Source: Candidatus Hodarchaeum mangrovi (GTDB lineage: Archaea > Asgardarchaeota > Heimdallarchaeia > Hodarchaeales > Hodarchaeaceae). From it: a stretch of DNA of 64,000 bases. Under the pieces are notes generated by a model. The model made no database searches, was not told where the DNA came from, and was given only the letters and a program-made list of their open reading frames with translations. A program made the position numbers and the translations under genes. The stretch lies in assembly GCA_016839515.1 (NCBI GenBank), contig JAEOUE010000254.1, positions 1 to 64,000 on the forward strand, written 5' to 3'. Positions 11,263 through 60,720 of the stretch are shown piece after piece (position 1 is the first letter of the stretch; every line of letters starts with the position of its first letter).

Positions 11263-11546
11263 CTACTCCAATTTAGTGATGATTTTCATGAAAATTTTCC
11301 TAATTTATTTTCTTAAATCATAAAAATACTATCTTTTTGTATAATAACGCTTTTAAATGTTTATTCTCAATATTTTAGATGTCTTGATAAAAATGTCGCT
11401 TTTATTACTCCTTTTTTTCTATTTGGAATGATATTTAAACTAGCAAAGTGATAAAACAATTGGTATATATATATATGCAATTATTTTGTTATATTAAAAA
11501 CATGTGTTTTGCATGTGATAGGAAAAAATTTTACTAAGGACTCCTA

Positions 11547-12308
11547 ATGTTCCGTCTTGATATAATAACCAAAGCAGGTATACTAGTTTTCTCTCATTCA
11601 TTCATTAATCCTTTAAGACTTGAAGAGAACAGCGATCAAGATATGCAGGCAAGTTTAATCACAGCTGTCTTAAATACTCTAAAAGAGACCCAAGGGGAAA
11701 CAATCACCGCCATACACCAAGTTGGATATAAATTACTTCTTTATGAAGGAATCCTTACCTTTGGTATCTTAACGATTTCTGGTGAGGATGAATCAAAGCT
11801 GCATAATTTTCTTCGGAGCATTGTTTTAAAATTTGAATTAATGTTTACCTACGAATTACATATAGAATCAGTGATCAATCGTACTACCTTCGAATCATTT
11901 AGGAAAATCATTAAGAATATGTATGAAGATATGATTGGGGTAGAATTTGATACATTGCATAAACTCTTAGAAATATTAAAATATTCTAATATATCCAACC
12001 TTGTTGTCTTTGAAACAAATTTTTTTCACCCCATTTTAACCAGTATAGTTGATCATTCGATTGATTTTCCTTTAGATAAAATTATTCGTATTTTTCGTGA
12101 GATTGACAATCTGAGTCTGAGTGAAAAAAAGGATAATGTAACTTGTTCTTTTGATTTGCAATCAATTATAATTCATGGTTTGAAGATTCGACAACATTGG
12201 ATTGCCTGCTTTTCTAGTCCAAATCATGTAAGCAAATTCATTATTCACAATGAAATTGAAGAAATTAAGAACTCATTGCTTTTTCCCGAAGCATTGTCAG
12301 TTAGTTAA
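11547..12308 (+). CDS. Longin-like domain protein with C-terminal roadblock/profilin-like alpha/beta domain
   Basis: LDIITKAGILVFSHSF hairpin, helix ASLITAVLNTLKE, beta meander, helix FLRSIVLKFELMF match longin topology. Confidence 0.6.
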   Translation: MFRLDIITKAGILVFSHSFINPLRLEENSDQDMQASLITAVLNTLKETQGETITAIHQVGYKLLLYEGILTFGILTISGEDESKLHNFLRSIVLKFELMFTYELHIESVINRTTFESFRKIIKNMYEDMIGVEFDTLHKLLEILKYSNISNLVVFETNFFHPILTSIVDHSIDFPLDKIIRIFREIDNLSLSEKKDNVTCSFDLQSIIIHGLKIRQHWIACFSSPNHVSKFIIHNEIEEIKNSLLFPEALSVS

Positions 12309-12388
12309 CCATTCAACTAGCTTTATATGAAGGAAGATTTACATTTAATTAAAGTAAAAGTAATATTTGATATGAGGGACAAACTGTT

Positions 12389-12979
12389 TTGGATGAATTT
12401 TATACTTCATCAAAAGACTTAACAATAAAGATTGCTATTCTTAGTCATCCAGATAATAAAGTCACCCTCTTACTTGAAAATTTAGTCAATACTTACCCTA
12501 AAAAAAGTACTTATCAATATTTTTCTTCCATTTCTGTTAATATTGCTGGTTTACGGTTAGATGAGCTCGATTCTTTCACTAATCGGAAAGTAAAATTATT
12601 TTTAATCCAACCAGTTAGCAATCTCTTCACTGACAAGTTAAATAGACGATATTATGAAACATACGGGGCAGTTATCTTCTTTTCTAAAAATAATCATGAT
12701 GAATTTGTCGCTGCAAAAGCCTTTTATGAAAATTTCAGGAAACTAGCCTCAAGTGAAACTCATCCTGTAGCTTTTGTTGAAGTTCTAGATGGAACTGAAG
12801 AATCCATCTCTAAAATTTTAACTGAACCTGAAATTATAGAGGATGCTCCATATAACTTCTATTATGCTATTAATATGCAAGATTACAAAGGATTTAGACA
12901 GATCTTGGAATTTATCACTAGGCAATTCCTAACAGGTCAAGAAGTTTTGAGAATTATTTCGATGCCCGATACCACTTAA
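12389..12979 (+). CDS. Degenerate Rab/Ras-fold protein (pseudo-GTPase)
   Basis: Collinear with the Rab-like GTPases in this window (IKIAIL, VKLFL, RRYY.TYGAVIFFS...EF, PVAFV), but G1, G3, G4 and G5 are all lost. Confidence 0.6.
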   Translation: MDEFYTSSKDLTIKIAILSHPDNKVTLLLENLVNTYPKKSTYQYFSSISVNIAGLRLDELDSFTNRKVKLFLIQPVSNLFTDKLNRRYYETYGAVIFFSKNNHDEFVAAKAFYENFRKLASSETHPVAFVEVLDGTEESISKILTEPEIIEDAPYNFYYAINMQDYKGFRQILEFITRQFLTGQEVLRIISMPDTT

Positions 12980-14359: not shown

Positions 14360-17300
14360 GTGAGACTATTATTTCATTTGAAATATTGGGTTTTCAAAGA
14401 TCTCTTTAATTTCACTTTGATTATCAGTTTGGTCATCCTTCCATCCTTTAATTATAATATCCTATTTCCGTCTCTAAATTTCATTGAAGGACAGAATGAG
14501 GAACTTTCAAACCAAAGCTCTGCTATTGATGTTAACTCGGTGAATACCGATCCATATTTCATTTTACACTCATTTCAAACCCCAAAAATCCTTTTTATTA
14601 TTGAAGATAAAAATAATCCACATCCACAGCTGGATATACCATTCTACAATTATATGACAGTGAACCTAAGCTTTTCAGTTTCTTATCATGATGATCAAAA
14701 TCAAACTTACCCTTCTGAGATTGATGCTATTGTAATATCTCAAACAATCATTGATGAAGGAGTTGTCAACAATCTTAATGCTAGTACGATTCCAATATTA
14801 ACAATGGAACCAGGTACACAAAATGAATTTCAATTAGGATCAAATTGGGGGATTGTTACTTCAGTAAATTCATTTTATGGGATAAATTCCTCTCACTATA
14901 TAACTAATGGCTTACCAGATCAATCATCAGTTCAAATTTATAATACAACTGGGAATTTTGGATATTTACTTGGTTTTAATGCTGTTCCTATTGGTTGTCA
15001 AGTTAATGATTTAGCAAAACCTTCATCTTTAGCAAATCATAAGTGGTTTCGTTCATTAATTACTTTAGAAAAGGGAGAAAATGACTGGTTATTAAAACCT
15101 GCCCCTGAACGAAGAGTATTTTGGGGTGCACACCAAGGAAATCTATTGAATCAGGCAGGATGGAATCTCTGGGAAAGGTCGTTAAAATGGATTTTATATG
15201 ATGATGATCCTGGAAGCGCTTCAATTACAGTAAATGTTAAGGATAAATCTTCAAAAAACGTAGAAAATGCTAAAGTAACATTAATTAATTCAACTGATTA
15301 TTCAAATTATTGGACTCTTAATACTACTGTTACTGGCACCGTAACTTTTACAGATATACCTTTTGATGATTATAACATTATAGTTGAATATCAAAAATCA
15401 ATAAATGATTCACTAACAATGTTACCAATTGTCTCTGAACGTACTTTTCAACGAACTGCAAGTTTCACCTATAGTATTCAGATCCCTTTGTATTTGGACA
15501 ATGAACCACCACAGATATTAAATACATGGTTCAATTCATCAGAATATTCGTTTTATGCAGATATCACTGATATTATCGCAATTTCAGAAGCCTTACTTAA
15601 CATTACAGTAATAAATAAAACTTCACCCTATGATATTATCATAAATACTAATTTTTCAATGGTTCTTAAAACAGGTATTACTTATTTTAATGATACTGCC
15701 TTAGATACTCTAGATGGTACAAATGTAAAAATTTACTACAATATCATTGCTACGGATGAGGCAGGAAATACACGTGTTTCAACAGTTGAAATATTTGATT
15801 TAGAAGACCCCAATCCTCCTCAAATTCATTCTTATGGAGCAAACGATTTTAAAAACGGAACTATCTTATTCTGGGCTAATGTTACTGACGATGGTGAGGT
15901 TGAGTCTGTTACTTTACGAATAAATAATACTTTTCTAAGTATGTTCAAAAATCAATCTAATTATTGGATAGTAAAGAAGAATTTTAATTACGATCTCGTT
16001 CTTAACTATACGATTTGGTCTGCCATTGATACATTAGGAAATGAGAACGGGTCAAAATTGCTTACTATTGATCCTTTATCTCAATTAATGCAAGTTGGGG
16101 ATAATCAAGCACCTCAAATTTGGGAGATCATGAGTACATTTACTTCTCATGTGGAAGGTTTTGTAGATTTCTCTGCACGAGTACAGGATTGGAACATTTA
16201 TCAGTCTCAAGTTAACGTCAGTCAAGTAAAAATTATTTTCGAAATAAATGGAGAAAATGTAACTTATTCCATGTTGAATCCTGGTGGTGGAATTTTTTAT
16301 TCCTTTTCCTACCTATTTAATTACAATGATTCAGTAGCCTTCTGGATTCAAGCGACCGATCTAGCAGGTAATCTGAATCAAGGAAGTAAACATGGTCCTT
16401 ATCCTATTTCTGATAATACTATACCCTATGGTATTTATTGGGCAAAGGAATGGGGGAATGGAACTGTAGATTTTTATTCCCAAGTGGTTGACTGGCCAGA
16501 AAATCAAACGAGTTCTATTTTAAATTATACTACAAATTATCCTTTTTCTTGGATCAGTCTACCGATGGATAAAATCAATAGTACCTTTTTCCATAAAAGA
16601 ATAGATACTTTTGAATATTCTGAAAATAATATTTGGTTTATAATTTCTGCAACAGATGCTTATAATAACAAATATCTACCATCCCTAGATGAAGCCAAGA
16701 GTATCATATTAACGGATGTGGTTAATCCTTCCATTTATTCTTCAAAAATTCACAATTCTACAAGTATCGATTGTCAAATTATTCTCGAGCTTCGAGCTAT
16801 AGATTCATTCGGACTTCCATATCCCTATACTTTAAACAATACATATTACTTAAACTATTCAGTCAATGGGAACCCGATGATCTCAGTAATTATGTCATAT
16901 GTCGATTATGGTCATTTTTCTTATACTTTAAACTTCTCATATTTAGATAATGTCTATTTATATGCTTGGGTTAATGATTTTTCTGGAAATCAAGGGTCTT
17001 GGTCAAAAAATATTACTATATTAGACTTTTCTGCTCCCAAAATTACAAATTATAATGGAACTGTTGATCAAACGGGGATATTTAAATTATGGGTAGAGAT
17101 ATTAGAGAATGGTAGTGGATTGGTAAATCAAAGAATTATTCTTTATGTAAGTAGCTCTATTTTCTATGAAACTTTAGTGAATAATGGAACGAAAAATATC
17201 TATGTTTATGAAAGAGGGGGATTTACACCACAAATGACCTTTGTTTTCTTTGAAATTGAAGCTTCAGACCTAGCAAACAATATCTATATAACACCATATT

Positions 17301-19189
17301 CAAGAGCTCCTATTGAAGACAAAATTCCTCCCCATTATGATGATTTTAGTATTATTCCTCAACAATCTTATCTTAACCGAACTCATGTGAATCTTGATTT
17401 CTGGATTGAGGCTTTTGATTCATTTGGAATATTAACGTCAGTTTTTGTAAACATTAGTTATGAAGACCATTATTCTAACTATACTCTTCTTAAATTTGGA
17501 GATCTTTATAAAACTTCGTCTAGTATAATAAGAAACGCAAATACCTCTTACTCCTTTGAGCTCGTTATTGTTGATGGCGTAGGGTTAACCAATCGAACAG
17601 GTTGGGTGGATTTCGTCACTTTACCATTTAACCAAGCTATTATTACAGATTTTGGAATCGAATATTCACCAACAGAAACTAATCAAATTAGAATTTGGAC
17701 TATTGTTAATAATTCAAAGGATGACGTAAACCTTTACCTTAATGCATCAAAAAACGACCAGATAATAGTATCGCATGAATTAATGATATTCAATGATTCT
17801 CATTATTATTTTGAGCTGAATAATGTAAGCTATCAAAGCAATATTACATATGAAATAGTAGTTGTAGATAACGGTGTTAGAAATGAATATTATTTGCCTA
17901 ATATAATTGAAGATATAATAGTGGTCGAAGATAAATGGGCTCCCAAATTCATTGGATTCGATTACGATCCAAATTATGGCAATAATTCTATATTAATATG
18001 GGCTAGTGTCTTTGAAGATGGAGCAGGGATTGAAAACATCACAATTGTATATGATTTTACCTCTGGTGGTAGTGGAGGAAATCTCCAAGACTGGAAGATA
18101 GATAGTTTGACTCAAATCAACCAATCGTATTATACAATCGTCATTCCAATTACAGGTTCGGGTAAATTTCAATTTAAGTTAATTGCATATGATAAAGCAG
18201 GAAATAAAAACCCTCAAAGTTACTTTACAACATATCCTATTCCAAATATTGAAAGTGGAATTGATCCGCTATTACTCTTAATTGTCTTCGCTTTAACAGC
18301 CTTTATCTTTATTAGCGCAATCGTAGCTGGAAATATCTACCGGAGAAAGAAACAAGCTCAAGAATCAAAATTAAAAGAGTTAAAGACAAAATTAAATATT
18401 CCACTAAATATTTACACACTTCTTGTAACTAGCGCTGCAGGAATTCCAATTTTTGATATGACAAATGTTCTTTATCAACGAGACGAATCCTTAAACACCA
18501 CACTTTCAGGTGTTTCAGTTAGCATCGATACTTTTCTTGATTCTTTTCAGGCTGATTTTATAGATCAATTTCAACAAGTTCCTCAGCATGAACGGAGCGA
18601 ATTTGTTCGAATTAGTGTCATCGAACAAGCTCAAGTAAAGATCTTAATTGGTGCAAGTCAAAATTATAGAATGTTTATTTTCTTCAAGGAGAAACCATCA
18701 GCTTTTGCAAGGAATATTGCCTCTAAGATTATCAGGGAAATTGAGGAAAAATTACCTCTTAAGGATTTGGGGATAATTGATGATAGCCTATTGAAACCTC
18801 AAATTAAAAGAATTATAAATTCTCATCTCCCCTTAACCCTTTTAACACCCTTTTCAATTGATCCAGCAAAAATTAAATTTTATGAAGCTAAAATCAAAGC
18901 TCATGAAACGTCACCTATATCCATGAAGGCATTGAATCTATTAAAAAGAATAATTGTCACCCGTACTTCGCCAAATCTCCTAAAATCAGAGAATAAAACT
19001 CAATTAACCTTTTACGATAAAAATTTAGCAAATCTTCAAATTTTAATGGGAGTAGAATTTTTATACTCTGAAGTAATTGTTATTTGTAAAAAGGCTCTAA
19101 ATGCTTCTGAAGAGCTCATGTATGAAGCTCTCTGGATAGGAGCTTCCCCTTTAGTTAACTTACTTCACGAACCTAAATTTGGTGTTTAA
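14360..19189 (+). CDS. Large single-pass surface protein: signal/anchor, alpha/beta domain, Cna-B-like domain, ~9 Ig-like repeats, TM helix, cytoplasmic longin-like domain
   Basis: Repeated DxxPPxI...A.D.AGN units, many NxS/T sequons, TM LLLLIVFALTAFIFISAIVAGNIY followed by RRKK, then NIYTLLVTSAAGIPIF...TLSGVSVSIDTFL. Confidence 0.75.
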   Translation: MRLLFHLKYWVFKDLFNFTLIISLVILPSFNYNILFPSLNFIEGQNEELSNQSSAIDVNSVNTDPYFILHSFQTPKILFIIEDKNNPHPQLDIPFYNYMTVNLSFSVSYHDDQNQTYPSEIDAIVISQTIIDEGVVNNLNASTIPILTMEPGTQNEFQLGSNWGIVTSVNSFYGINSSHYITNGLPDQSSVQIYNTTGNFGYLLGFNAVPIGCQVNDLAKPSSLANHKWFRSLITLEKGENDWLLKPAPERRVFWGAHQGNLLNQAGWNLWERSLKWILYDDDPGSASITVNVKDKSSKNVENAKVTLINSTDYSNYWTLNTTVTGTVTFTDIPFDDYNIIVEYQKSINDSLTMLPIVSERTFQRTASFTYSIQIPLYLDNEPPQILNTWFNSSEYSFYADITDIIAISEALLNITVINKTSPYDIIINTNFSMVLKTGITYFNDTALDTLDGTNVKIYYNIIATDEAGNTRVSTVEIFDLEDPNPPQIHSYGANDFKNGTILFWANVTDDGEVESVTLRINNTFLSMFKNQSNYWIVKKNFNYDLVLNYTIWSAIDTLGNENGSKLLTIDPLSQLMQVGDNQAPQIWEIMSTFTSHVEGFVDFSARVQDWNIYQSQVNVSQVKIIFEINGENVTYSMLNPGGGIFYSFSYLFNYNDSVAFWIQATDLAGNLNQGSKHGPYPISDNTIPYGIYWAKEWGNGTVDFYSQVVDWPENQTSSILNYTTNYPFSWISLPMDKINSTFFHKRIDTFEYSENNIWFIISATDAYNNKYLPSLDEAKSIILTDVVNPSIYSSKIHNSTSIDCQIILELRAIDSFGLPYPYTLNNTYYLNYSVNGNPMISVIMSYVDYGHFSYTLNFSYLDNVYLYAWVNDFSGNQGSWSKNITILDFSAPKITNYNGTVDQTGIFKLWVEILENGSGLVNQRIILYVSSSIFYETLVNNGTKNIYVYERGGFTPQMTFVFFEIEASDLANNIYITPYSRAPIEDKIPPHYDDFSIIPQQSYLNRTHVNLDFWIEAFDSFGILTSVFVNISYEDHYSNYTLLKFGDLYKTSSSIIRNANTSYSFELVIVDGVGLTNRTGWVDFVTLPFNQAIITDFGIEYSPTETNQIRIWTIVNNSKDDVNLYLNASKNDQIIVSHELMIFNDSHYYFELNNVSYQSNITYEIVVVDNGVRNEYYLPNIIEDIIVVEDKWAPKFIGFDYDPNYGNNSILIWASVFEDGAGIENITIVYDFTSGGSGGNLQDWKIDSLTQINQSYYTIVIPITGSGKFQFKLIAYDKAGNKNPQSYFTTYPIPNIESGIDPLLLLIVFALTAFIFISAIVAGNIYRRKKQAQESKLKELKTKLNIPLNIYTLLVTSAAGIPIFDMTNVLYQRDESLNTTLSGVSVSIDTFLDSFQADFIDQFQQVPQHERSEFVRISVIEQAQVKILIGASQNYRMFIFFKEKPSAFARNIASKIIREIEEKLPLKDLGIIDDSLLKPQIKRIINSHLPLTLLTPFSIDPAKIKFYEAKIKAHETSPISMKALNLLKRIIVTRTSPNLLKSENKTQLTFYDKNLANLQILMGVEFLYSEVIVICKKALNASEELMYEALWIGASPLVNLLHEPKFGV

Positions 19190-19769
19190 ATCTTTGACAA
19201 TTATTGTAAAGATTGTACTTCTAGGAGATGGTTCTGTTGGTAAGACTACTTTACGTGAACGATTCATGGGTAGGGGATTTACAACCAGTTATTTACCTAC
19301 TTTAGGAGCAGAATTTGTCTCAAAGGTCCTTCCAATCACCAGACCAACCAAAACAATATCATTGCGTTTTCAGATATGGGATTTGGCAGGGCAACCAACC
19401 TTTAAACAAATCAGAAAATTATATTATCGTGATTCGGTAGGATTAATTCTTGTTTTCGACATTACTCGTCCAGAGTCTCTTTACAATTTAAAAACATGGT
19501 TAAGTGAAGCAATAACTTATTCAGGGTCTAAAAAATTATCTGTTGTCATTTTGGGTAATAAGATTGATCTGAGAGAATTAGACTGGGTAAAAGCCGAGGA
19601 AATTACTCAAACTTTAAATGAAATTAATAAATTTGACACTTTAGATTCTCCTGCTATCTTTTATCAAACATCTGCCAAAACAGGGGAGAATGTGAATTTA
19701 GCATTCGAAACTATAGGAAAAAAAATTCTCGATAGGTATGAACAGCTAAATTATTTTGATGAAGTATGA
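19179..19769 (+). CDS. Rab-like small GTPase
   Basis: GDGSVGKT, PTLG, WDLAGQ, GNKID, TSAK; start overlaps the upstream stop. Confidence 0.93.
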   Translation: MVFKSLTIIVKIVLLGDGSVGKTTLRERFMGRGFTTSYLPTLGAEFVSKVLPITRPTKTISLRFQIWDLAGQPTFKQIRKLYYRDSVGLILVFDITRPESLYNLKTWLSEAITYSGSKKLSVVILGNKIDLRELDWVKAEEITQTLNEINKFDTLDSPAIFYQTSAKTGENVNLAFETIGKKILDRYEQLNYFDEV

Positions 19770-20043: not shown

Positions 20044-20601
20044 ATGGCTATATTGGCTAAAGTTTTACTTTTAGGAGATGGTGCAGTTGGTAAAACGGCC
20101 TTAAGAGATTCTTTTCTTGGACGAAGTTTTTCAACCAATTATATACCAACATTGGGTGCAGATTTCATCGCAAAAACCATTACACTTGAGGGGAGAGAAC
20201 TCAGATTTCAAATATGGGATTTAGCTGGACAACCGGCATTTCGTGATGTTAGGAAGCTTTATTATCGTAATACAGCTGGAGCATTCCTAGTTTTTGATTT
20301 AACACGTTTGGAGACATTAACAAACATATCTACATGGTTGACTGAACTTGCGATTAATGCTAATACTCCTAAGGTTTCAATCGTAGTGATTGGAAATAAA
20401 TTAGATCTATTAGAAAAAGAAATTGACCTTGAAAATGAAATTGAATCAATTTTGGAGACCATAAAATTAAAACATCTAGCAAACATTGATACACATATAA
20501 CATACATCGAAACATCAGCTAAAACAGGCAAAAATGTCCCTGATGCGTTTTTTAAATTGGGAGAAGGGATTTTACAACTATATGTGAATGAAAATTTTTA
20601 A
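20044..20601 (+). CDS. Rab-like small GTPase
   Basis: GDGAVGKT, PTLG, WDLAGQ, GNKLD, TSAK; AGGAG upstream of ATG. Confidence 0.93.
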   Translation: MAILAKVLLLGDGAVGKTALRDSFLGRSFSTNYIPTLGADFIAKTITLEGRELRFQIWDLAGQPAFRDVRKLYYRNTAGAFLVFDLTRLETLTNISTWLTELAINANTPKVSIVVIGNKLDLLEKEIDLENEIESILETIKLKHLANIDTHITYIETSAKTGKNVPDAFFKLGEGILQLYVNENF

Positions 20602-34125: not shown

Positions 34126-34611
34126 TTATTTGTTTTTTATTAACAAATTATTATTCTCTGACAAGATTCCTTTATCAATCAAATGATTAATTGCTTCTTC
34201 TAATTTAAGATTGTCTGGAGGAGAATTTCCATTAGAAATTGCTTTTATTGTAGCATTCATTACAATTGCTGCTTTATTCTCGAATTTACCTTGAAAAGCA
34301 CCTAGAACCATCGATTCATATTCATCAAAATCACCTATAGGTTTTATTATTTCAACTTCTTTTTCTTCATCATCCGAATCAACATTTATTTTTGTTTTAT
34401 TCTTTAAGATTAATAAGTCCCCTTTCGATTCAATTGTGCCTTCTGATATTAACTCGTCAATTACCTCATTAATCTTATCTTTTGAAGGGAGTTTTTCCCC
34501 TCTTTGTGCTTTCTCTACCACAAATTGCATAATAAATGCTTGACGTTTTTCCATTTTGCTAGGAAAAGTATTTAATAATTGTTCCTTTAATTTTTTAGTC
34601 AATTTGCACAC
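34126..34611 (-). CDS. Protein with two internal winged-helix-like repeats
   Basis: INEVIDELISEGTIESKGDLLILKNK vs LEEAINHLIDKGILSENNNLLIKNK, joined by an acidic linker. Confidence 0.55.
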   Translation of the reverse strand: MCKLTKKLKEQLLNTFPSKMEKRQAFIMQFVVEKAQRGEKLPSKDKINEVIDELISEGTIESKGDLLILKNKTKINVDSDDEEKEVEIIKPIGDFDEYESMVLGAFQGKFENKAAIVMNATIKAISNGNSPPDNLKLEEAINHLIDKGILSENNNLLIKNK

Positions 34612-35172
34612 CTATTCTATATTCAGCTGACTTCGTTTCATCCTAGCCTTTAAAATCGTCTGAGACAATATTTCAATTGCTTCATGAACATTAGTTCCCA
34701 TTCGAGCTGAAGTAGGAAGATATGGAATTTCAAATGGAATATTCGGATTACTATCAAGAAACTCTTGTAATAATTCTTTATTGTATACTGCTGGTAAATC
34801 ACATTTATTTCCTAATACGATAAATGGTACTTCAGGTCCTGCATTGGTATGAAGTTCTTCACGCCATAATTTTAAGTTCTCCATAGATAGGGGTCTGGTA
34901 ACATCAAAAACCATAATACAGGCTCTTGAACCCTTGTAGAAAGGCCCCCGAACTAAATCAAATCGTCGTTGTCCAGCTAAATCCCAGAATTGGTATCGAA
35001 AAAGCTGGCCACTTGCACTTGTATATGGATATGTAGCAATATTTGCTCCAATGGTCAACAAATAAGTGGAATGAAACTCTCGTCCTAGTAAATATTCAAT
35101 AATACTGGTCTTTCCTACAGCTCCATCTCCAATTATTGTTATCTTGTAGTATTGACCAATATGAGGTTCCAT
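34612..35172 (-). CDS. Rab-like small GTPase
   Basis: GDGAVGKT, LTIG, WDLAGQ, GNKCD, TSAR. Confidence 0.93.
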   Translation of the reverse strand: MEPHIGQYYKITIIGDGAVGKTSIIEYLLGREFHSTYLLTIGANIATYPYTSASGQLFRYQFWDLAGQRRFDLVRGPFYKGSRACIMVFDVTRPLSMENLKLWREELHTNAGPEVPFIVLGNKCDLPAVYNKELLQEFLDSNPNIPFEIPYLPTSARMGTNVHEAIEILSQTILKARMKRSQLNIE

Positions 35173-55627: not shown

Positions 55628-57574
55628 TCAAGAAGGAGTATCAAGCAGATTGGAATATTCAATTAATCCTAAATCTTGCAAGTGATTTTTATTAGGTAAT
55701 GAAGTCTCTAAATCCCATTTCAATTTATTATAAAAATCACGTATAATCTGATTTTCTTCTTCGACAGTAATACCTTTATTTGGGCCACTAATTGCTGTTT
55801 TAAGAAGTCGAGTAGGTAATTTGAATGCTAAAGGATTAATTCCTTCTCGAATGTTGAACAAATGTTTAAGAGTAAAAATTCTTTCACCAATTATTGCAAG
55901 TTCTTTTCCTGAATAGGTTGAACCCAGAGTTAATTTTAAGAATTCAGCTATTGGGAAATTTCCCGTTACTAAAGAAAATTGACATAACCCCAGTGACGAA
56001 GTGAGTTGATTATAAAAATAAAAATTAGAGATTTGATCCTTCTTATCTAATTCAGGATACATTTCGTTATATTTAGATAATCCAATCATCAACTCCATAA
56101 AAGCAGTATGTCGACCAGGAGCTGGATCTATTCGATAGGGTAAAACAAGTGTTTTAGAATAACGGGGATCATGAGCTGGAATTGGTTGATTTTGGATATG
56201 CATCGCATATTCTTCTCCCAATTCCTTTTCAACTGCTTTTAATCCTTCTGCAAACCGATCCCCAAGGCCTCTACGATGAACTATTAGCTCTAAAAAGGCC
56301 AAATAGTTTTGCGGGTGTCCCCAATCTAGGATTAAACCTTCTAAATCTTGAGCTGTTAACCGTCCTGTTTCCTGTGCCTCTATAGCATAAGCTATTAATG
56401 CACCAGCTGCGATTGTATCCACTCCCTGTCTATTACAAAAGTCATTAAGCTGAAAAATTGATCCTAGATCATCATTCAGGAGATTTGATCCCAGCATTGC
56501 TAATGTTTCATATTCAGGCTTATGGGTATCTTCAAAAGTATATCTTTCATCTGAATAACGCATTATTCCTCCACAAGCCATTGGACAGGAATGACATCCA
56601 TAGCTTTTGATCTGATATTGTATTACATTATCTCCAGTTATTTTTATACTATTTTTTAACGGAAAATCCTTATGAGAACCACCCCAATTTTTTACTGGAC
56701 CATCTCCTGTTTCTACTGCAATAGCCGTTCCAGCACAAGTTCCCCACTTTCTATACCCCTCTATCACTAGATTAGAAGGACTCATAGAGCCGAAGTTTTT
56801 AATCCTGAAGCGTCGAATCCATGGTGCAAATATCGTTGAAGCTTTTAAAGCAGGTTCCATTAATGAACTAATTCCTTTATTTATCCGTTTATTAACCAAT
56901 TTTCTAAGCTCGGTTAATCCATCTGGGTCACTTACTGGTATATCCTTTGTTCCACTAACGACAATAGCTTTCAAATTTTTAGACCCCATGACTGCACCTA
57001 AACCACTTCTAGCCGCTATTCGTCCTTTATCGGTCACAATACCACTAATTAATACTTTATTCTCTCCAGCTAATCCTATAGAAGCAACATGTACCTTTCC
57101 ATATTGATTCTGCAGTATTTCCTCAGTTTCTAAACAATCCTTCCCTTTTAAATGAGGTGAGGAAATAATCTCTACTGAATCATCAGTAATACGTAGAATA
57201 CTTAGCTCTTTAGATTTTCCTTTAATTATAAGACCATCAAATCCAGATTTTCTTAATTCTGGCCCAAAACGTCCACCACAGTTAGCCTCTCCCCATGTAT
57301 TAGTCAGTGGAGATTTAGATGCAACAGTAAACCGTCCAGAAAAAGGAATTCGTGTTGCACTAAATATTCCTGTAATAAAGCATAAAAAATTATCTGGAGA
57401 GAGAGGATCAACTTTAGCAGGCATATTTCTTAAGAGATAATCAATAACTATGCCATGACCACCTAAAAATTTTAAAAATTTTTCTTCACTAAATCCAATT
57501 GACTCTAATGAAACAGATTTATTTGTTAAGTCAATTATTGCAAGACGATATAATCTAGAATTAGAAATACTCAA
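55628..57574 (-). CDS. aor: Tungsten-dependent aldehyde:ferredoxin oxidoreductase family protein
   Basis: KSPLT, GEANCGG, AARSGLGAVMGSKNLKAI, CHSCPMAC, PEYET, GVDTI, HDPR, GLCQF. Confidence 0.9.
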   Translation of the reverse strand: MSISNSRLYRLAIIDLTNKSVSLESIGFSEEKFLKFLGGHGIVIDYLLRNMPAKVDPLSPDNFLCFITGIFSATRIPFSGRFTVASKSPLTNTWGEANCGGRFGPELRKSGFDGLIIKGKSKELSILRITDDSVEIISSPHLKGKDCLETEEILQNQYGKVHVASIGLAGENKVLISGIVTDKGRIAARSGLGAVMGSKNLKAIVVSGTKDIPVSDPDGLTELRKLVNKRINKGISSLMEPALKASTIFAPWIRRFRIKNFGSMSPSNLVIEGYRKWGTCAGTAIAVETGDGPVKNWGGSHKDFPLKNSIKITGDNVIQYQIKSYGCHSCPMACGGIMRYSDERYTFEDTHKPEYETLAMLGSNLLNDDLGSIFQLNDFCNRQGVDTIAAGALIAYAIEAQETGRLTAQDLEGLILDWGHPQNYLAFLELIVHRRGLGDRFAEGLKAVEKELGEEYAMHIQNQPIPAHDPRYSKTLVLPYRIDPAPGRHTAFMELMIGLSKYNEMYPELDKKDQISNFYFYNQLTSSLGLCQFSLVTGNFPIAEFLKLTLGSTYSGKELAIIGERIFTLKHLFNIREGINPLAFKLPTRLLKTAISGPNKGITVEEENQIIRDFYNKLKWDLETSLPNKNHLQDLGLIEYSNLLDTPS

Positions 57575-57625
57575 TTAATTACCATCCATTGAAGATATAC
57601 AATTCAAATAGCTCTATATTTTTAC

Positions 57626-58465
57626 TCATTTGAGACCAAAACCCATTTGCATTAATTCCGAAAGCTTAGCGAGGAATCGAGTCGCGGGAGCTCCAAGGGA
57701 CACCTCCTCATCAAACATCACAGTCATACTGAGGTATTCGCCAATGTCGACAGGGTTAGCTAGATCTCTTCGCTTCTTAAAGATTCCCCCCAATGCGAAC
57801 ACAACAGGATGCAAACCGATTGGGATGGCCCATCCCCCGCCTTTTCCGAACATACCTACTGCTGTGACACCAACAGTACCCATGAGACGCTTCCTTAGAA
57901 AAGGATCTGATCTAATTTTCCACCAAAAAGGCTTCTTCAGGAAGCCTGGTAAGCGAAGAAAGACACTGACTGACTCAGGAATCCCTTCACCAGCTATGAA
58001 ACGTCCACTGGTTTCTAACCTCTGGACCCGACGAATCTCATCATTAATCTGCCTGAAGCTCTTCTCATTCGCCTTCCTCACGATGTATTGAGTAGGAACC
58101 TTTTCTGAATTCACCTGCCGCTCGATTATCATGCCAACATCAACATCCTCGAAGACAATGAGCTTTATTTTTCCTTTCTTAAAGGCTTGAATTTCTCTAT
58201 GCTCGCCTATGGCTTGAGCAATACATTTTATCACCCAAGCTGTGAAAGAAAGCTTCTCTCCAGTCTTTACTTCATTCTCTATGATAAACTTCCGTGCTTC
58301 TGTGACATCAATCTCAACTAGCCCATAGATACGGTTTTTCGGTGCTAGGTTGTTAAGAAGGTCTATGGGCCAAGTAGATCTGCGGGTTATTTCTCTGAAA
58401 GGAACAGTACTTCCTAATTCTTCGGGTTTCATATCTGGGTCCTGCTTTTTTGAACTCATAAACAA
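57626..58465 (-). CDS. Stand-alone 2-oxoacid dehydrogenase acyltransferase (E2) catalytic-domain protein lacking the catalytic His
   Basis: EIDVT, SFTAWVIKC, GTVGVTAVG, FDEEVSLGAPATRF in place of DHxxxDGA; no lipoyl domain. Confidence 0.8.
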   Translation of the reverse strand: MFMSSKKQDPDMKPEELGSTVPFREITRRSTWPIDLLNNLAPKNRIYGLVEIDVTEARKFIIENEVKTGEKLSFTAWVIKCIAQAIGEHREIQAFKKGKIKLIVFEDVDVGMIIERQVNSEKVPTQYIVRKANEKSFRQINDEIRRVQRLETSGRFIAGEGIPESVSVFLRLPGFLKKPFWWKIRSDPFLRKRLMGTVGVTAVGMFGKGGGWAIPIGLHPVVFALGGIFKKRRDLANPVDIGEYLSMTVMFDEEVSLGAPATRFLAKLSELMQMGFGLK

Positions 58466-58530
58466 TAAACCTCATTTCCATCCGTTAGAACCAAAATACT
58501 AGAGCACTTTGTCCCTGTTGCGTATAGGCA

Positions 58531-58580
58531 TATTATATATAAATGTATACTAAATGTACATTAATCGTTCTATATATAAA
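58531..58580. promoter_or_regulatory. Divergent promoter region with imperfect palindrome AATGTA-N9-TACATT flanked by TATA-like boxes
   Basis: AATGTA at 58542-58547 and TACATT at 58557-58562; TATATATAAA tracts on both sides. Confidence 0.4.
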
Positions 58581-58597
58581 CCACAGGGTGAATCAAA

Positions 58598-59794
58598 GTG
58601 ACCAAAAAAAGTGTGATTTCAGGGTTTGTCAAACCTAGGTTTGAAGCTGTACAGGAAGCCTTCGCTGAGAACTTTGAGCAGCGAAATGAACTAGGGGCAG
58701 CCTGTTGTATTTACCACCGAGGAGAAAAAGTAGTCGACTTATGGGGTGGCATTAGAAACGAAACTACTGGAGAACCATGGGAAGAAGATACCATGGTGAT
58801 TGTTTGGTCAACTACAAAGGGATTAGCTGGATTAGCTATGGCACTTGCTCATTCACGGGGATTATTTGACTTCGATGAATGTGTCTCAAAGTATTGGCCT
58901 GAATTTGCTCAAGAGGGTAAAGAGAATATCACTATTCGACAGCTACTAGCACATCAAGCGGGACTCTTTGAATTCGATGGACAAGGTGACAAGAACACGA
59001 TAGCAGACCTTGATCGTCTAGCAGAGAACTTAGCACGACAAAAACCTGCATGGGAGCCAGGAACGAAGCAGGGATATCACGCTATCAGCCTTGGATACTA
59101 CCAAAGCGAGCTCTTGCGCCACGTTGACCCCAATGGCCGTAGCCTAGGGCAGTACTTCCAAGATGAAATTGCTACTCCACTTGGTCTCGACTTCTACATT
59201 CGACTTCCTGAAGAAATTCCAAATTCCAGACTAGCTACCCTTCGAACTGCCAAGATTGGCCTTTTGGCGATACGAGGTATGCCATTCCGCTTGGTTCTTG
59301 CATCGATGTACAAAAATTCTACATTCCGTAGATCGCTATTTGGGAGTGACATTTCCTTGGACAAAGAACATATTTATGCTAGGAATTTCGAAGTTCCTTC
59401 AGGAGGAGGTGTGGGAACAGCCCGTGCCATTGCTCATGCATACAGCGTTTTTGCGACCGGTGGAAAGGAACTTGGACTGCGAGAGGATACACTTCAACAA
59501 TTAATGGCACCCCCCGTTGCTCCATTACAAGGATCCAGAGATCTAGCCCTAAAAGTGGAGATACCATTCTCTCTCAGTTTCACGAAACCCTCTCCAAAGA
59601 CCCCCTGGGGTTCTCCTAGCTCATTTGGGATGCCAGGAACAGGAGGTTCATTTGGATTTGCGGATCCACAAGCTAAGATAGGATATGGGTATGTCCTCAA
59701 TGGGATGGGTATGTCACTTACTGATCCAAGAGACCTCGCTCTACGTACAGCAATGTACCATTCAATTGGCATAACAGATCCGTACTATGAGTGA
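58598..59794 (+). CDS. Serine hydrolase, beta-lactamase class C-like esterase
   Basis: VVDLWGG, STTK (SxxK), LLAHQAGL, WEPGT..GYH, FGMPGTGGS. Confidence 0.92.
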   Translation: MTKKSVISGFVKPRFEAVQEAFAENFEQRNELGAACCIYHRGEKVVDLWGGIRNETTGEPWEEDTMVIVWSTTKGLAGLAMALAHSRGLFDFDECVSKYWPEFAQEGKENITIRQLLAHQAGLFEFDGQGDKNTIADLDRLAENLARQKPAWEPGTKQGYHAISLGYYQSELLRHVDPNGRSLGQYFQDEIATPLGLDFYIRLPEEIPNSRLATLRTAKIGLLAIRGMPFRLVLASMYKNSTFRRSLFGSDISLDKEHIYARNFEVPSGGGVGTARAIAHAYSVFATGGKELGLREDTLQQLMAPPVAPLQGSRDLALKVEIPFSLSFTKPSPKTPWGSPSSFGMPGTGGSFGFADPQAKIGYGYVLNGMGMSLTDPRDLALRTAMYHSIGITDPYYE

Positions 59795-60720
59795 GGAGAC
59801 AATCCAACACTAGGAACCAAGAGATTCAAAACGATACAAATTTTAACAAGTCTGCAAATTCTAATACTTCCTATTGTATTTTGCCTTCACATTTGAATAT
59901 GAAAACTAACATACTTATAGGTACTTTGTGGTAGGTTACAGTTTCATTACTGCGTACAGATATTGATTTCGTCTCTACCCAATCGGAACTCTTTTATATT
60001 CCTCGTGTTAGGTATCTTGGGATTCTTAATAGATCCCTAGATTCTGAAAGGATAATTATTGTGGTTAATCAGGATTCAGGGACATATTATAATCTATGAT
60101 TGTATAATATTGGCGACAGTGCAAGTCATTGTCCTCCTACGTGGAGATGAAAACCAAGTTTGATTAGCAAAACAGATCTATACCACAGGACCAGCTAGAA
60201 CATACCTGAAATAGAAAAGGAGCAAACAGAATCGTCCCAGAAAAAATCAGTAATAAACAGATTACAACCAGATAATAGAATAGGGCTATAGGGAACAATA
60301 TAAGTAATTGCAAATTATATAAGTCACTACAATACAAGTGATTTAATATTATAGGACAGTGTTACAGTGATTATTAATAAAGAAATTCTAGAGGTTGTTG
60401 TTAGCATAAACAACCATCAGGAAGATCTATTCATTTGCAATATTATTTTTAGTTTTCTACTTCATTGATAGACCATTTTTGCAAAGTGTTGAAGTATTTA
60501 AAAGAGATAATTGTTTCCTTTTGAATCGCACAAAAGAGAAAAGATTCTCAGCGGTGTGCAAAGCATTAATTTTGTTGACTTCCTGATGGAAGGAATTTTC
60601 ACCTCTCCCCTATCCTATAGCTATTAAGACGGTGTGAAACCTATATTTTAAATTATAACCTTTTCCTTTGTTTACAATCGATACTTTAACCTTAATACTA
60701 TTGTTTTTAATTGCTTATTT

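Follow-up and report, generated by a model that had tools for sequence, protein, structure and literature searches.

PseudoGTPases are documented mainly in eukaryotes. Those of class i neither bind nor hydrolyze nucleotide (PMC12490416), and a solved precedent exists in which the class i pseudoGTPase domain of AAGAB binds AP1 sigma, a protein of longin/roadblock fold (PMC12490416). CENP-M acts as a scaffold in kinetochore assembly (PMC10211241). Longin/roadblock dimers are in turn established platforms for small GTPases (PMC10933270), and an operon that combines a roadblock protein with a Rab-like GTPase has been described in Asgard archaea (Liu et al, 2020, preprint, 10.1101/2020.10.19.343400). 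Here, we analyze a gene pair in 64,000 nucleotides (nt) of Candidatus Hodarchaeum mangrovi DNA (Asgardarchaeota, Hodarchaeales; assembly GCA_016839515.1, contig JAEOUE010000254.1, positions 1 to 64,000), hereafter the window. The first open reading frame, ORF-A (11547..12308, plus strand, ATG start), encodes 253 amino acids (aa) of predicted two-module longin/roadblock type; the second, ORF-B (12389..12979, plus strand, TTG start), encodes a 196-aa Rab/Ras-fold protein of what we call the LSHPD family. ORF-B is very probably a pseudoGTPase, in which the fold of the G domain is kept and its motifs are replaced by other conserved residues.

A first-pass annotation, made by inspection of the sequence, had described ORF-B as a catalytically dead small GTPase, retained as a scaffold or decoy and paired with a longin-like gene. 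The coordinates, the full-length intact frame of ORF-B and its position 80 nt downstream of ORF-A on the same strand are as it gave them. Where the source of a homolog is named, for ORF-A as well as for ORF-B, it is Candidatus Hodarchaeales/Hodarchaeota (Asgard archaea).

Fold, lost motifs and conservation of ORF-B

In pairwise comparison, the kinship of ORF-B with small GTPases is not recognizable. BLASTP against two intact GTPases of the window gives insignificant E values of 2.4 and 11, Pfam returns no match even at E ≤ 1, and the only PDB match from phmmer is IFT27 (E 0.026). With pairwise values like these, the by-eye alignment with the window GTPases in the first-pass annotation has, taken alone, no statistical support. 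Its register nonetheless stands, as it agrees with MAFFT, the family profile, a ladder alignment through intact paralogs and the predicted fold. MAFFT reproduces the motif correspondences seen by eye, and in the ladder alignment KIAILSHPDNKVT faces KICAIGSGGVGKTS. The strings that had been quoted are all present in ORF-B, IKIAILSHPDNKVTLL as residues 13-28, KVKLFLIQPVSNLF from residue 67 and PVAFVEV as residues 126-132, and PVAFVEV occupies the NKxD place in the same register in MAFFT, in the Rab21 profile alignment and in the ladder alignment.

The relationship becomes visible at the level of the family. A word-index search with ORF-B found four proteins among 105 candidates (100, 79, 57 and 56% identity), and an exhaustive HMMER search of cluster representatives (50% clustering) found 26 at E ≤ 1e-3, 16 of these at E ≤ 1e-10. 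The 18-member alignment A4 combines the four word-index proteins with 14 of the 26 representatives; it drops fragments (P0046, P0052, P0053, P0055, P0058, P0059) and long proteins (P0051, P0054, P0056, P0060, P0061), the long matches including an LRR-Roc GTPase (P0061), a TPR protein (P0051), a cadherin-repeat protein (P0060) and a tandem G-domain protein (P0054). The A4 profile matches 557 distinct PDB sequences at E ≤ 0.1, best of all Rab21 (3.7e-10) and Rab23 (5.9e-10). This match runs from strand 2 to helix 5, beginning past the P-loop and helix 1 (profile position 32-36), and places the family string vPvaFve opposite the Rab21 strand that leads into NKxD. When ten relatives of ORF-B were scanned with Pfam, eight matched the Ras model at E ≤ 0.1 and five exceeded its 21.6-bit cut-off (P0041 with 23.3 bits, P0044 with 31.7, P0050 with 29.9, P0057 with 36.4 and P0054 with 62.2).

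The AlphaFold2 model of ORF-B built on A4 (predicted local distance difference test, pLDDT, 84.2; predicted TM-score, pTM, 0.83) has a six-stranded alpha/beta G-domain fold. A Foldseek search with this model returns 1223 PDB chains at E ≤ 1e-3, with TMt up to 0.74, and all 46 matches listed (ranks 1-50, with gaps) belong to the Ras superfamily (Rab, Ras, Ran, Ral); the best is Ypt7 from its complex with Mon1-Ccz1, a longin guanine nucleotide exchange factor (GEF), at E 2.9e-8. An ESM Atlas feature search leads to Ras-superfamily clusters as well, which we take as a lead only. By predicted fold and profile-level homology, ORF-B is thus a Ras/Rab-like G domain, the outcome on which the first-pass reading had hung. 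Its label "Rab-fold" fits in that the best profile matches are Rab21 and Rab23, but the C-terminal prenylation cysteines of a Rab proper are absent: the protein ends in ...LRIISMPDTT and contains no cysteine anywhere, so that ORF-B is not a prenylated Rab.

None of the motif patterns of an active G domain (G.{4}GK[ST], D..G[QHETLM], [NT][KQ].D) matches ORF-B. Alignments place LSHPD (residues 18-22, 12440..12454, plus strand, as LSHPDNKV) where intact GTPases have the P-loop GxxxxGK[ST], IQPVS (residues 73-77, 12605..12619, plus strand, as IQPVSN) in the G3 place of DxxGQ, and FVEV (residues 129-132, 12773..12784, plus strand) in the G4 place of NKxD. In the last strand, FYY(AI) starts at residue 157 where intact paralogs have the G5 motif ETSAK, its YY being residues 158-159 (12860..12865, plus strand). 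The residues of G1, G3, G4 and G5 are hence all replaced, as the first-pass annotation had it. These replacements are themselves conserved. LSHPD, IQPVS and FVEV are invariant in the four orthologs, LSHPD / QPxx / FVE recur in the family at the places of the lost motifs, and Y158 is invariant across A4. A P-loop is found in 0 of the 18 A4 members, and NKxD is likewise absent; the single Walker-pattern match, at residue 99 of P0048, is not in the P-loop place. In another 28 distinct ORFs of the family, Walker A and NKxD occur in none and a DxxG pattern in one, whereas 23 have an LSHPD-like string.

With a GTPase fold in the model and no G-motif residues in the motif scan, ORF-B fits class i of the classification quoted in PMC12490416 as far as fold and sequence go. 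As all nucleotide-binding motifs are replaced, we predict from the sequence that ORF-B binds no guanine nucleotide.

That the gene is retained is seen in several ways. Orthologs of 79, 57 and 56% identity exist beside the 26 family representatives, and the family is represented in 16 of 24 genomes from the order. Between ORF-B and its 79% ortholog on the metagenomic locus L044, a single sequence pair, the Nei-Gojobori ratio of non-synonymous to synonymous substitution rates (dN/dS) is 0.225 at dS 0.49; in the same comparison, the ratio is 0.13 for the PNPOx-like gene downstream and 0.10 for the final 46 codons of ORF-A. ORF-B is under purifying selection. Contigs from four runs of four studies have no indel within ORF-A or ORF-B, single contigs among them bridge the junction of the two genes, and the assemblies differ by indels only in a TA-rich stretch upstream of ORF-A (indels at 11464-11476; 2-nt deletions and two substitutions over 11464-11477). 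With its fold kept, its motifs lost, its frame intact and its dN/dS well below one, ORF-B gives good support to the first-pass reading of a retained but catalytically dead small GTPase; neither of the outcomes that would have overturned that reading, a different fold or a lack of conserved orthologs, was obtained.

Origin of the LSHPD family

Where does a G domain without its motifs come from? The genome of Ca. H. mangrovi itself offers a comparison, as the Pfam Ras model matches it 56 times, 51 times above the cut-off. Among 52 frames tabulated from it, eight rows (seven ORFs) have no Walker A match, and all three motifs are missing only in ORF-B and its paralog C32:7716-8246. In an IQ-TREE phylogeny of 41 of these 52 frames (150-270 aa) and the 18 rows of A4, the 20 LSHPD-type rows form one clade (ultrafast bootstrap 100, SH-aLRT 97). 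It lies within a 26-row clade (99/99) that has four intact GTPases at its base (C254, C23, C31:4042 and C70:16351) and in which C40 and C172, two partly degenerate paralogs, branch off one after the other next to the LSHPD clade (98/88 and 99/93). As judged from this sequence tree, which is rooted by midpoint only, has a long C172 branch and may be affected by mutual attraction of degenerate sequences, the LSHPD family has a single origin from a subclade of intact Rab-like GTPases, with partly degenerate paralogs on its stem.

The ladder alignment follows the same steps. C70:16351 is intact (GSGGVGKT, DTAGQ, NKKD); C40 is very similar to it, but has GSPSSPKT and a broken G4; in C172, the P-loop and G4 are missing and the G3 place is disrupted. 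Throughout, the framework is kept in the LSHPD clade, where KICAIGS corresponds to KIAILSH and VKLILVD...YYRGA to VKLFLIQ...YYETYGA. The series from C70 through C40 and C172 to the LSHPD clade provides natural intermediates for the study of how a switch becomes a scaffold.

Other Ras-like ORFs without Walker A in this genome are C40:22739-23440, C172:10103-10699, C106:2800-3333, C259:1298-2161 and C148:9220-9921. C40:22739-23440 nearly duplicates the intact C70:16351 gene but has a long insertion, the C259 frame of 332 aa contains two tandem degenerate G domains, and C148 retains DLAGQ and NKKD. By their motifs, the genome holds pseudoGTPases at several stages.

ORF-A, the gene pair and its possible role

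The sequence of ORF-A is silent about its family: Pfam gives no match at E ≤ 0.01, and searches of the PDB by sequence and by profile recognize nothing. ORF-A has 32 homologs among 543 candidates, and its own genome encodes five paralogs. The family alignment A3 contains 25 of the 32 homologs; the near-identical P0006 and P0007, the partial P0012, and P0015, P0019, P0020 and P0021 were dropped. As assigned by DSSP on the AlphaFold2 model of ORF-A (pLDDT 79.6, pTM 0.60), module 1 (residues 1-99, 11547..11843, plus strand) has the longin-type order beta-beta-alpha-beta-beta-beta-alpha, the N-terminal helix being absent (strands 3-8 and 13-18, helix 31-47, strands 55-58, 61-67 and 71-77, helix 82-99). 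A helical linker follows (residues 101-145, 11847..11981, plus strand; helices 101-105, 112-115, 118-130 and 134-145). Module 2 (residues 151-250, 11997..12296, plus strand) repeats the order beta-beta-alpha-beta-beta-beta-alpha with a helix ahead of it, a roadblock-like topology (strands 151-156 and 162-167, helix 176-192, strands 197-203, 208-214 and 217-223, helix 230-245).

The best Foldseek matches of ORF-A are CCZ1/MON1 (2.6e-7 to 6e-5), BLOC-3 (6e-6) and Fuzzy/Inturned/CPLANE (1e-5 to 1e-4), and these take in both modules, with about 280-295 aligned columns; Rag C-terminal domains, AP sigma (about 5e-4), Lamtor and MglB follow at about 1e-3. The model thus supports a longin module joined to a roadblock-like module. 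The earlier description of ORF-A as longin/roadblock-like holds for the predicted structure and fails for every sequence model tried (Pfam, PDB searches, 25 relatives): Pfam on 25 members of the ORF-A family gives only scattered chance-level matches, with 0 of 25 matching longin, Mon1 or Fuzzy models.

A scan of the own genome with PF19036 (Fuz_longin_1) returns only two loci, both below the cut-off and neither of them ORF-A. The frame C1:1947-2696 has 250 aa, similar in length to ORF-A, with a longin-like N-terminal start (PF19036 at 18-19 bits, Sybindin at 15.6 bits, neither reaching its cut-off) and a C-terminal half that is roadblock-like by eye; it is not detectably related to ORF-A (hhalign probability 1.5%). 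An ESM Atlas lead from ORF-A to a Fuz_longin_1 cluster scored 0.82, under the tool's own 0.9 line, and does not count as a match.

Is the pair itself conserved? Scanning genome contigs for orthologs of ORF-B found none, and scanning metagenomes found one, the 79% ortholog on L044. This locus starts within an ORF-A ortholog, of which the last 46 residues are present, and continues with the ORF-B ortholog; for about 4.8 kb it runs collinear with the window, unrelated genes included. A metagenome-assembled genome at NCBI has two consecutive genes on one contig of 19817 bases, ACTSW1_14925, which encodes 257 aa and falls in the cluster of a 70% relative of ORF-A, and ACTSW1_14930, the 57% ortholog of ORF-B. 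For the 56% ortholog of ORF-B and a 66% ortholog of ORF-A (P0004, P0009), the source is in each case a JGI contig 29941 bases long, probably one and the same. The pair is kept in the assessable orthologs.

What could a G domain that does not switch do next to ORF-A? Longin/roadblock platforms for small GTPases and the complex of AAGAB with AP1 sigma are the two precedents that lead us to read ORF-B as a non-switching module on ORF-A. In this proposal, ORF-A, alone or with a paralog, would form a longin platform able to hold small GTPases, and ORF-B would be a protein-binding module that sits on it permanently, because no GTP binds to release it. ORF-B would then serve as a stable scaffold or else as a decoy, keeping an active paralog off the platform. 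The contact between the two proteins and the scaffold or decoy role are what we infer; the proposal as a whole we favor by a narrow measure, and a functional link between ORF-B and ORF-A we consider plausible, at somewhat under even chances. Co-folding of ORF-A and ORF-B (A3, A4) scored 0.00 in two runs without controls, a result that speaks neither for nor against binding.

A number of observations weigh against the proposal. For ORF-A, the Foldseek TM-scores are only 0.3-0.38 at a root-mean-square deviation of about 17 Å, which means that its likeness to tri-longin proteins lies in the tandem order of modules and not in a superposable whole, and no sequence link to longin families was obtained through Pfam, PDB or hhalign routes. 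No ORF-A relative occurs within flanks of about 1.5 kb at any of 29 other family loci (L015-L043; 28 from 15 other genomes and the C32 paralog of the own genome), some of which are cut by contig ends, and three of the five own-genome ORF-A paralogs have no adjacent G-domain gene. A fused A-B form was not found at E ≤ 1e-5 among proteins of 348-2000 aa, itself weak evidence. For ORF-B, the selection estimate comes from one ortholog pair; the higher major-residue fraction at the former G1 (0.65) and G4 (0.67) places compared with the overall mean of 0.49 is only suggestive, since it derives in part from included core strands; and the four-study contigs show two synonymous and four non-synonymous single-nucleotide polymorphisms (SNPs), at least one from a low-depth contig end and all of the changes outside the replaced motifs (ORF-A has two of each kind). 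Lastly, the 80-nt spacer (12309..12388, plus strand) contains TTTATATG at 12322-12329 and GAGGG at 12374-12378, 10 nt ahead of the TTG start of ORF-B, which by their likeness to consensus sequences may be an archaeal TATA-like box and a ribosome-binding site. Both are kept in L044, where the spacer is 72.5% identical without gaps, and the TATA-like string suggests that ORF-B may have a promoter of its own.

The pairing that the first-pass annotation had pointed out thus holds for this orthogroup and not for the wider pseudoGTPase family. This leaves room for an alternative in which ORF-B is a pseudoGTPase whose place beside ORF-A is mere local synteny, its true partner being encoded elsewhere, for instance an active GTPase paralog in a Rag-like or regulator-like heterodimer, or the members of some other complex. 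The 29 loci and the TATA-like string fit with it, and so does the collinearity with L044, which extends to unrelated genes. The orthologs that carry the pair are close relatives (56-79% identity), so that the pair could persist by inherited gene order alone. In MK-D1, GTPase genes are generally not in operons with roadblock/longin genes according to Tran et al (2024; PMC10933270), and this rarity is what makes the matching of Asgard GTPases to their regulators hard. Another partner is hinted at by three loci from three other genomes (L023, L027 and L029, one LSHPD subfamily), where the pseudoGTPase gene comes immediately after that of an intact Rab-like GTPase (GDGGVGKT, DLAGQ, NKID). Against this stand the persistence of the pair at identities as low as 57% for ORF-B and about 70% for ORF-A, the role of longin/roadblock platforms as established docking sites for small G domains (PMC10933270), and the fact that a second ORF-A paralog also adjoins a G-domain gene: C47:17926-18669 begins 24 nt past the stop of an intact 459-aa GTPase (GDGMSGKT, DVGGQ, NKVD; Pfam Ras 27.6 bits), so that such a gene adjoins two of the five own-genome paralogs. 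On balance, we regard local synteny without a functional link to ORF-A as a real but less likely explanation.

The neighborhoods of other family members show an enoyl-CoA-hydratase-like gene at six loci, an intact GTPase at three and a 293-aa protein at three, with no universal partner among them. The 293-aa protein (L019, L021, L022) has no known family, and by eye the strand/loop pattern of its C-terminal half may recall a degenerate G domain. As for the ORF-A paralogs, the one at C47 (C47:16522-18669 region, L013) is divergent, and the GTPase ahead of it has a large insertion separating G1 from G3 and is extended by about 230 aa at its C-terminus; one other paralog has metabolic neighbors. 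Two others are arranged tail-to-tail, 2 nt apart (C81:37634-39135, L011/L012; 310 and 136 bits with the A3 profile), which recalls the paralogous heterodimers of eukaryotic longin GEFs, an analogy that is only suggestive.

Could ORF-B still bind guanine or another nucleotide through non-canonical residues, as an atypical switch? The loops of the former pocket are conserved (LSHPD, QP, FVE, YY), so the region evidently matters, and atypical relatives surface in the searches, with RABL5/IFT22 clusters at 0.92-0.93 in the ESM Atlas (leads only) and the phmmer match to IFT27 mentioned above. Yet the Walker lysine and Ser/Thr, the Asp and Gly of G3 and the Asn, Lys and Asp of G4 are absent in the members examined, and SHPD brings proline and acidic residues to the P-loop place, where they are unfavorable for phosphate binding. 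A switch of this kind is improbable. Re-use of the old pocket for another ligand, a metal or catalysis is more improbable still: His20, Asp22, Gln74, Glu131 and Tyr158/159 are invariant in the four orthologs, common in the family and clustered at the former G1, G3, G4 and G5, but no similarity to enzyme families was found by Pfam, PDB, profile or Foldseek searches, and in some subfamilies (LSFLD, LSLVD, LYNPK) H20 and D22 are not constant, which speaks against catalysis as an essential function of the whole family. Decay into a functionless gene, for which the loss of all catalytic motifs and the four non-synonymous changes among six SNPs could be cited, we count as refuted by the dN/dS of 0.225, the intact frame in four studies, the invariance of the replacement motifs among orthologs and the spread of the family, with 26 representatives at 50% clustering and matches in 16 of the 24 genomes from the order.

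Surroundings in the window and comparison with known systems

The window is AT-rich, with a GC content of about 0.30-0.34; at 56001-60000 it rises to 0.38-0.43, against about 0.32 in the rest. A sigma-70 promoter scan gave 16 sites compared with 13.7 ± 3.5 in shuffles, and 0 terminators, both uninformative for an archaeon. Three intact Ras-family GTPases are encoded, at 19179..19769 (plus strand, Pfam Ras E 1e-39), 20044..20601 (plus strand, 5e-42) and 34612..35172 (minus strand, 3e-31). A 161-aa ORF without family (34126..34611, minus strand) abuts the last of these on the same strand, possibly another pair of GTPase and partner.

Downstream of the A-B pair, in the window as well as in L044, lies a gene for a 1609-aa protein (14360..19189, plus strand) with many N-x-S/T sites in its long N-terminal part, a single predicted membrane span close to the C-terminus and then about 300 aa of cytoplasmic tail. 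The stop of this gene and the TTG start of the GTPase at 19179..19769 overlap, and the second GTPase follows 275 nt further on. This protein may be a receptor coupled to a GTPase. Pfam has no match for the tail, and the possibility that it is an ORF-A-like module was ruled out by hhalign (probability 0.05).

In the literature searched, we found no Asgard pseudoGTPase, although the supplements of Tran et al (2024; GTPase model classes) and the asCOG tables of Liu et al may list the family or ORF-A, and for archaeal pseudoGTPases we found only general pseudoenzyme reviews. No tri-longin protein in archaea was found there, and the available parts of the work on Hodarchaeales longins and Asgard Ccz1 contain no description of the A-B pair. 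The ORF-B family is a new archaeal instance of pseudoGTPases, monophyletic and conserved. It belongs to the large expansion of Asgard GTPases as a branch in which switching was lost and the fold retained, and it suggests that "dead" GTPase scaffolds are older than eukaryotic cells. ORF-A, whose best structural matches are RabGEF subunits of the Mon1/Ccz1 type, is for that reason a testable candidate for the prokaryotic roots of such complexes. One step further, the pair might be an archaeal forerunner of assemblies of a longin platform with a G domain, a frozen complex resembling that of a GEF with its substrate, in which a Mon1/Ccz1-like multi-longin protein holds a nucleotide-free, Rab-derived domain; we think this unlikely. 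If it were true, eukaryogenesis would have been preceded, in the closest archaeal relatives of eukaryotes, by pseudoGTPase scaffolds and by a precursor of the tri-longin RabGEFs with two longins, and the ladder in the own genome would record the change from switch to scaffold.

How does the pair compare with described systems? Similar to the class i pseudoGTPases of eukaryotes (the N-terminal domain of AAGAB/Irc6, CENP-M, and pG1/pG2 of p190RhoGAP), in which a G fold with degraded motifs is kept as an interaction module, ORF-B appears to have traded its motifs while keeping its fold. The AAGAB partner AP1/AP2 sigma has the longin/roadblock fold (PMC12490416), and the neighbor of ORF-B is longin-like by its model. 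In contrast to these eukaryotic proteins, ORF-B is archaeal, free-standing with 196 aa and derived from a lineage-specific Rab-like subclade, its nucleotide-free state being a prediction; none of them appears among 60 profile matches or the 46 Foldseek matches listed, and no direct comparison was made. With Rab21, Rab23 and Ypt7, ORF-B shares profile and fold likeness from strand 2 to helix 5, but it is without G1, G3, G4, G5 and the C-terminal cysteine.

The tri-longin RabGEF subunits (Mon1/Ccz1, HPS1/HPS4 of BLOC-3 and Fuzzy/Inturned of CPLANE) resemble ORF-A in their tandem longin-type modules and in having several paralogs in one genome, two of which are adjacent in the case of ORF-A. They differ in size and in sequence, with three longin domains in 400 or more aa as opposed to two modules in 253 aa, and their sequence models, such as PF19036 (Fuz_longin_1), match neither ORF-A nor its 25 relatives. 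GEF activity of ORF-A is also not to be expected toward a partner, ORF-B, that is predicted to bind no nucleotide. Finally, MglB/MglA, Ragulator-Rag and the Asgard operon of roadblock, Rab-like and DENN proteins combine a longin/roadblock platform with a small G domain, as the A-B pair would; there, however, an active switch is paired with a platform that serves as GTPase-activating protein, GEF or anchor, whereas the G domain next to ORF-A has kept the fold and given up the motifs.

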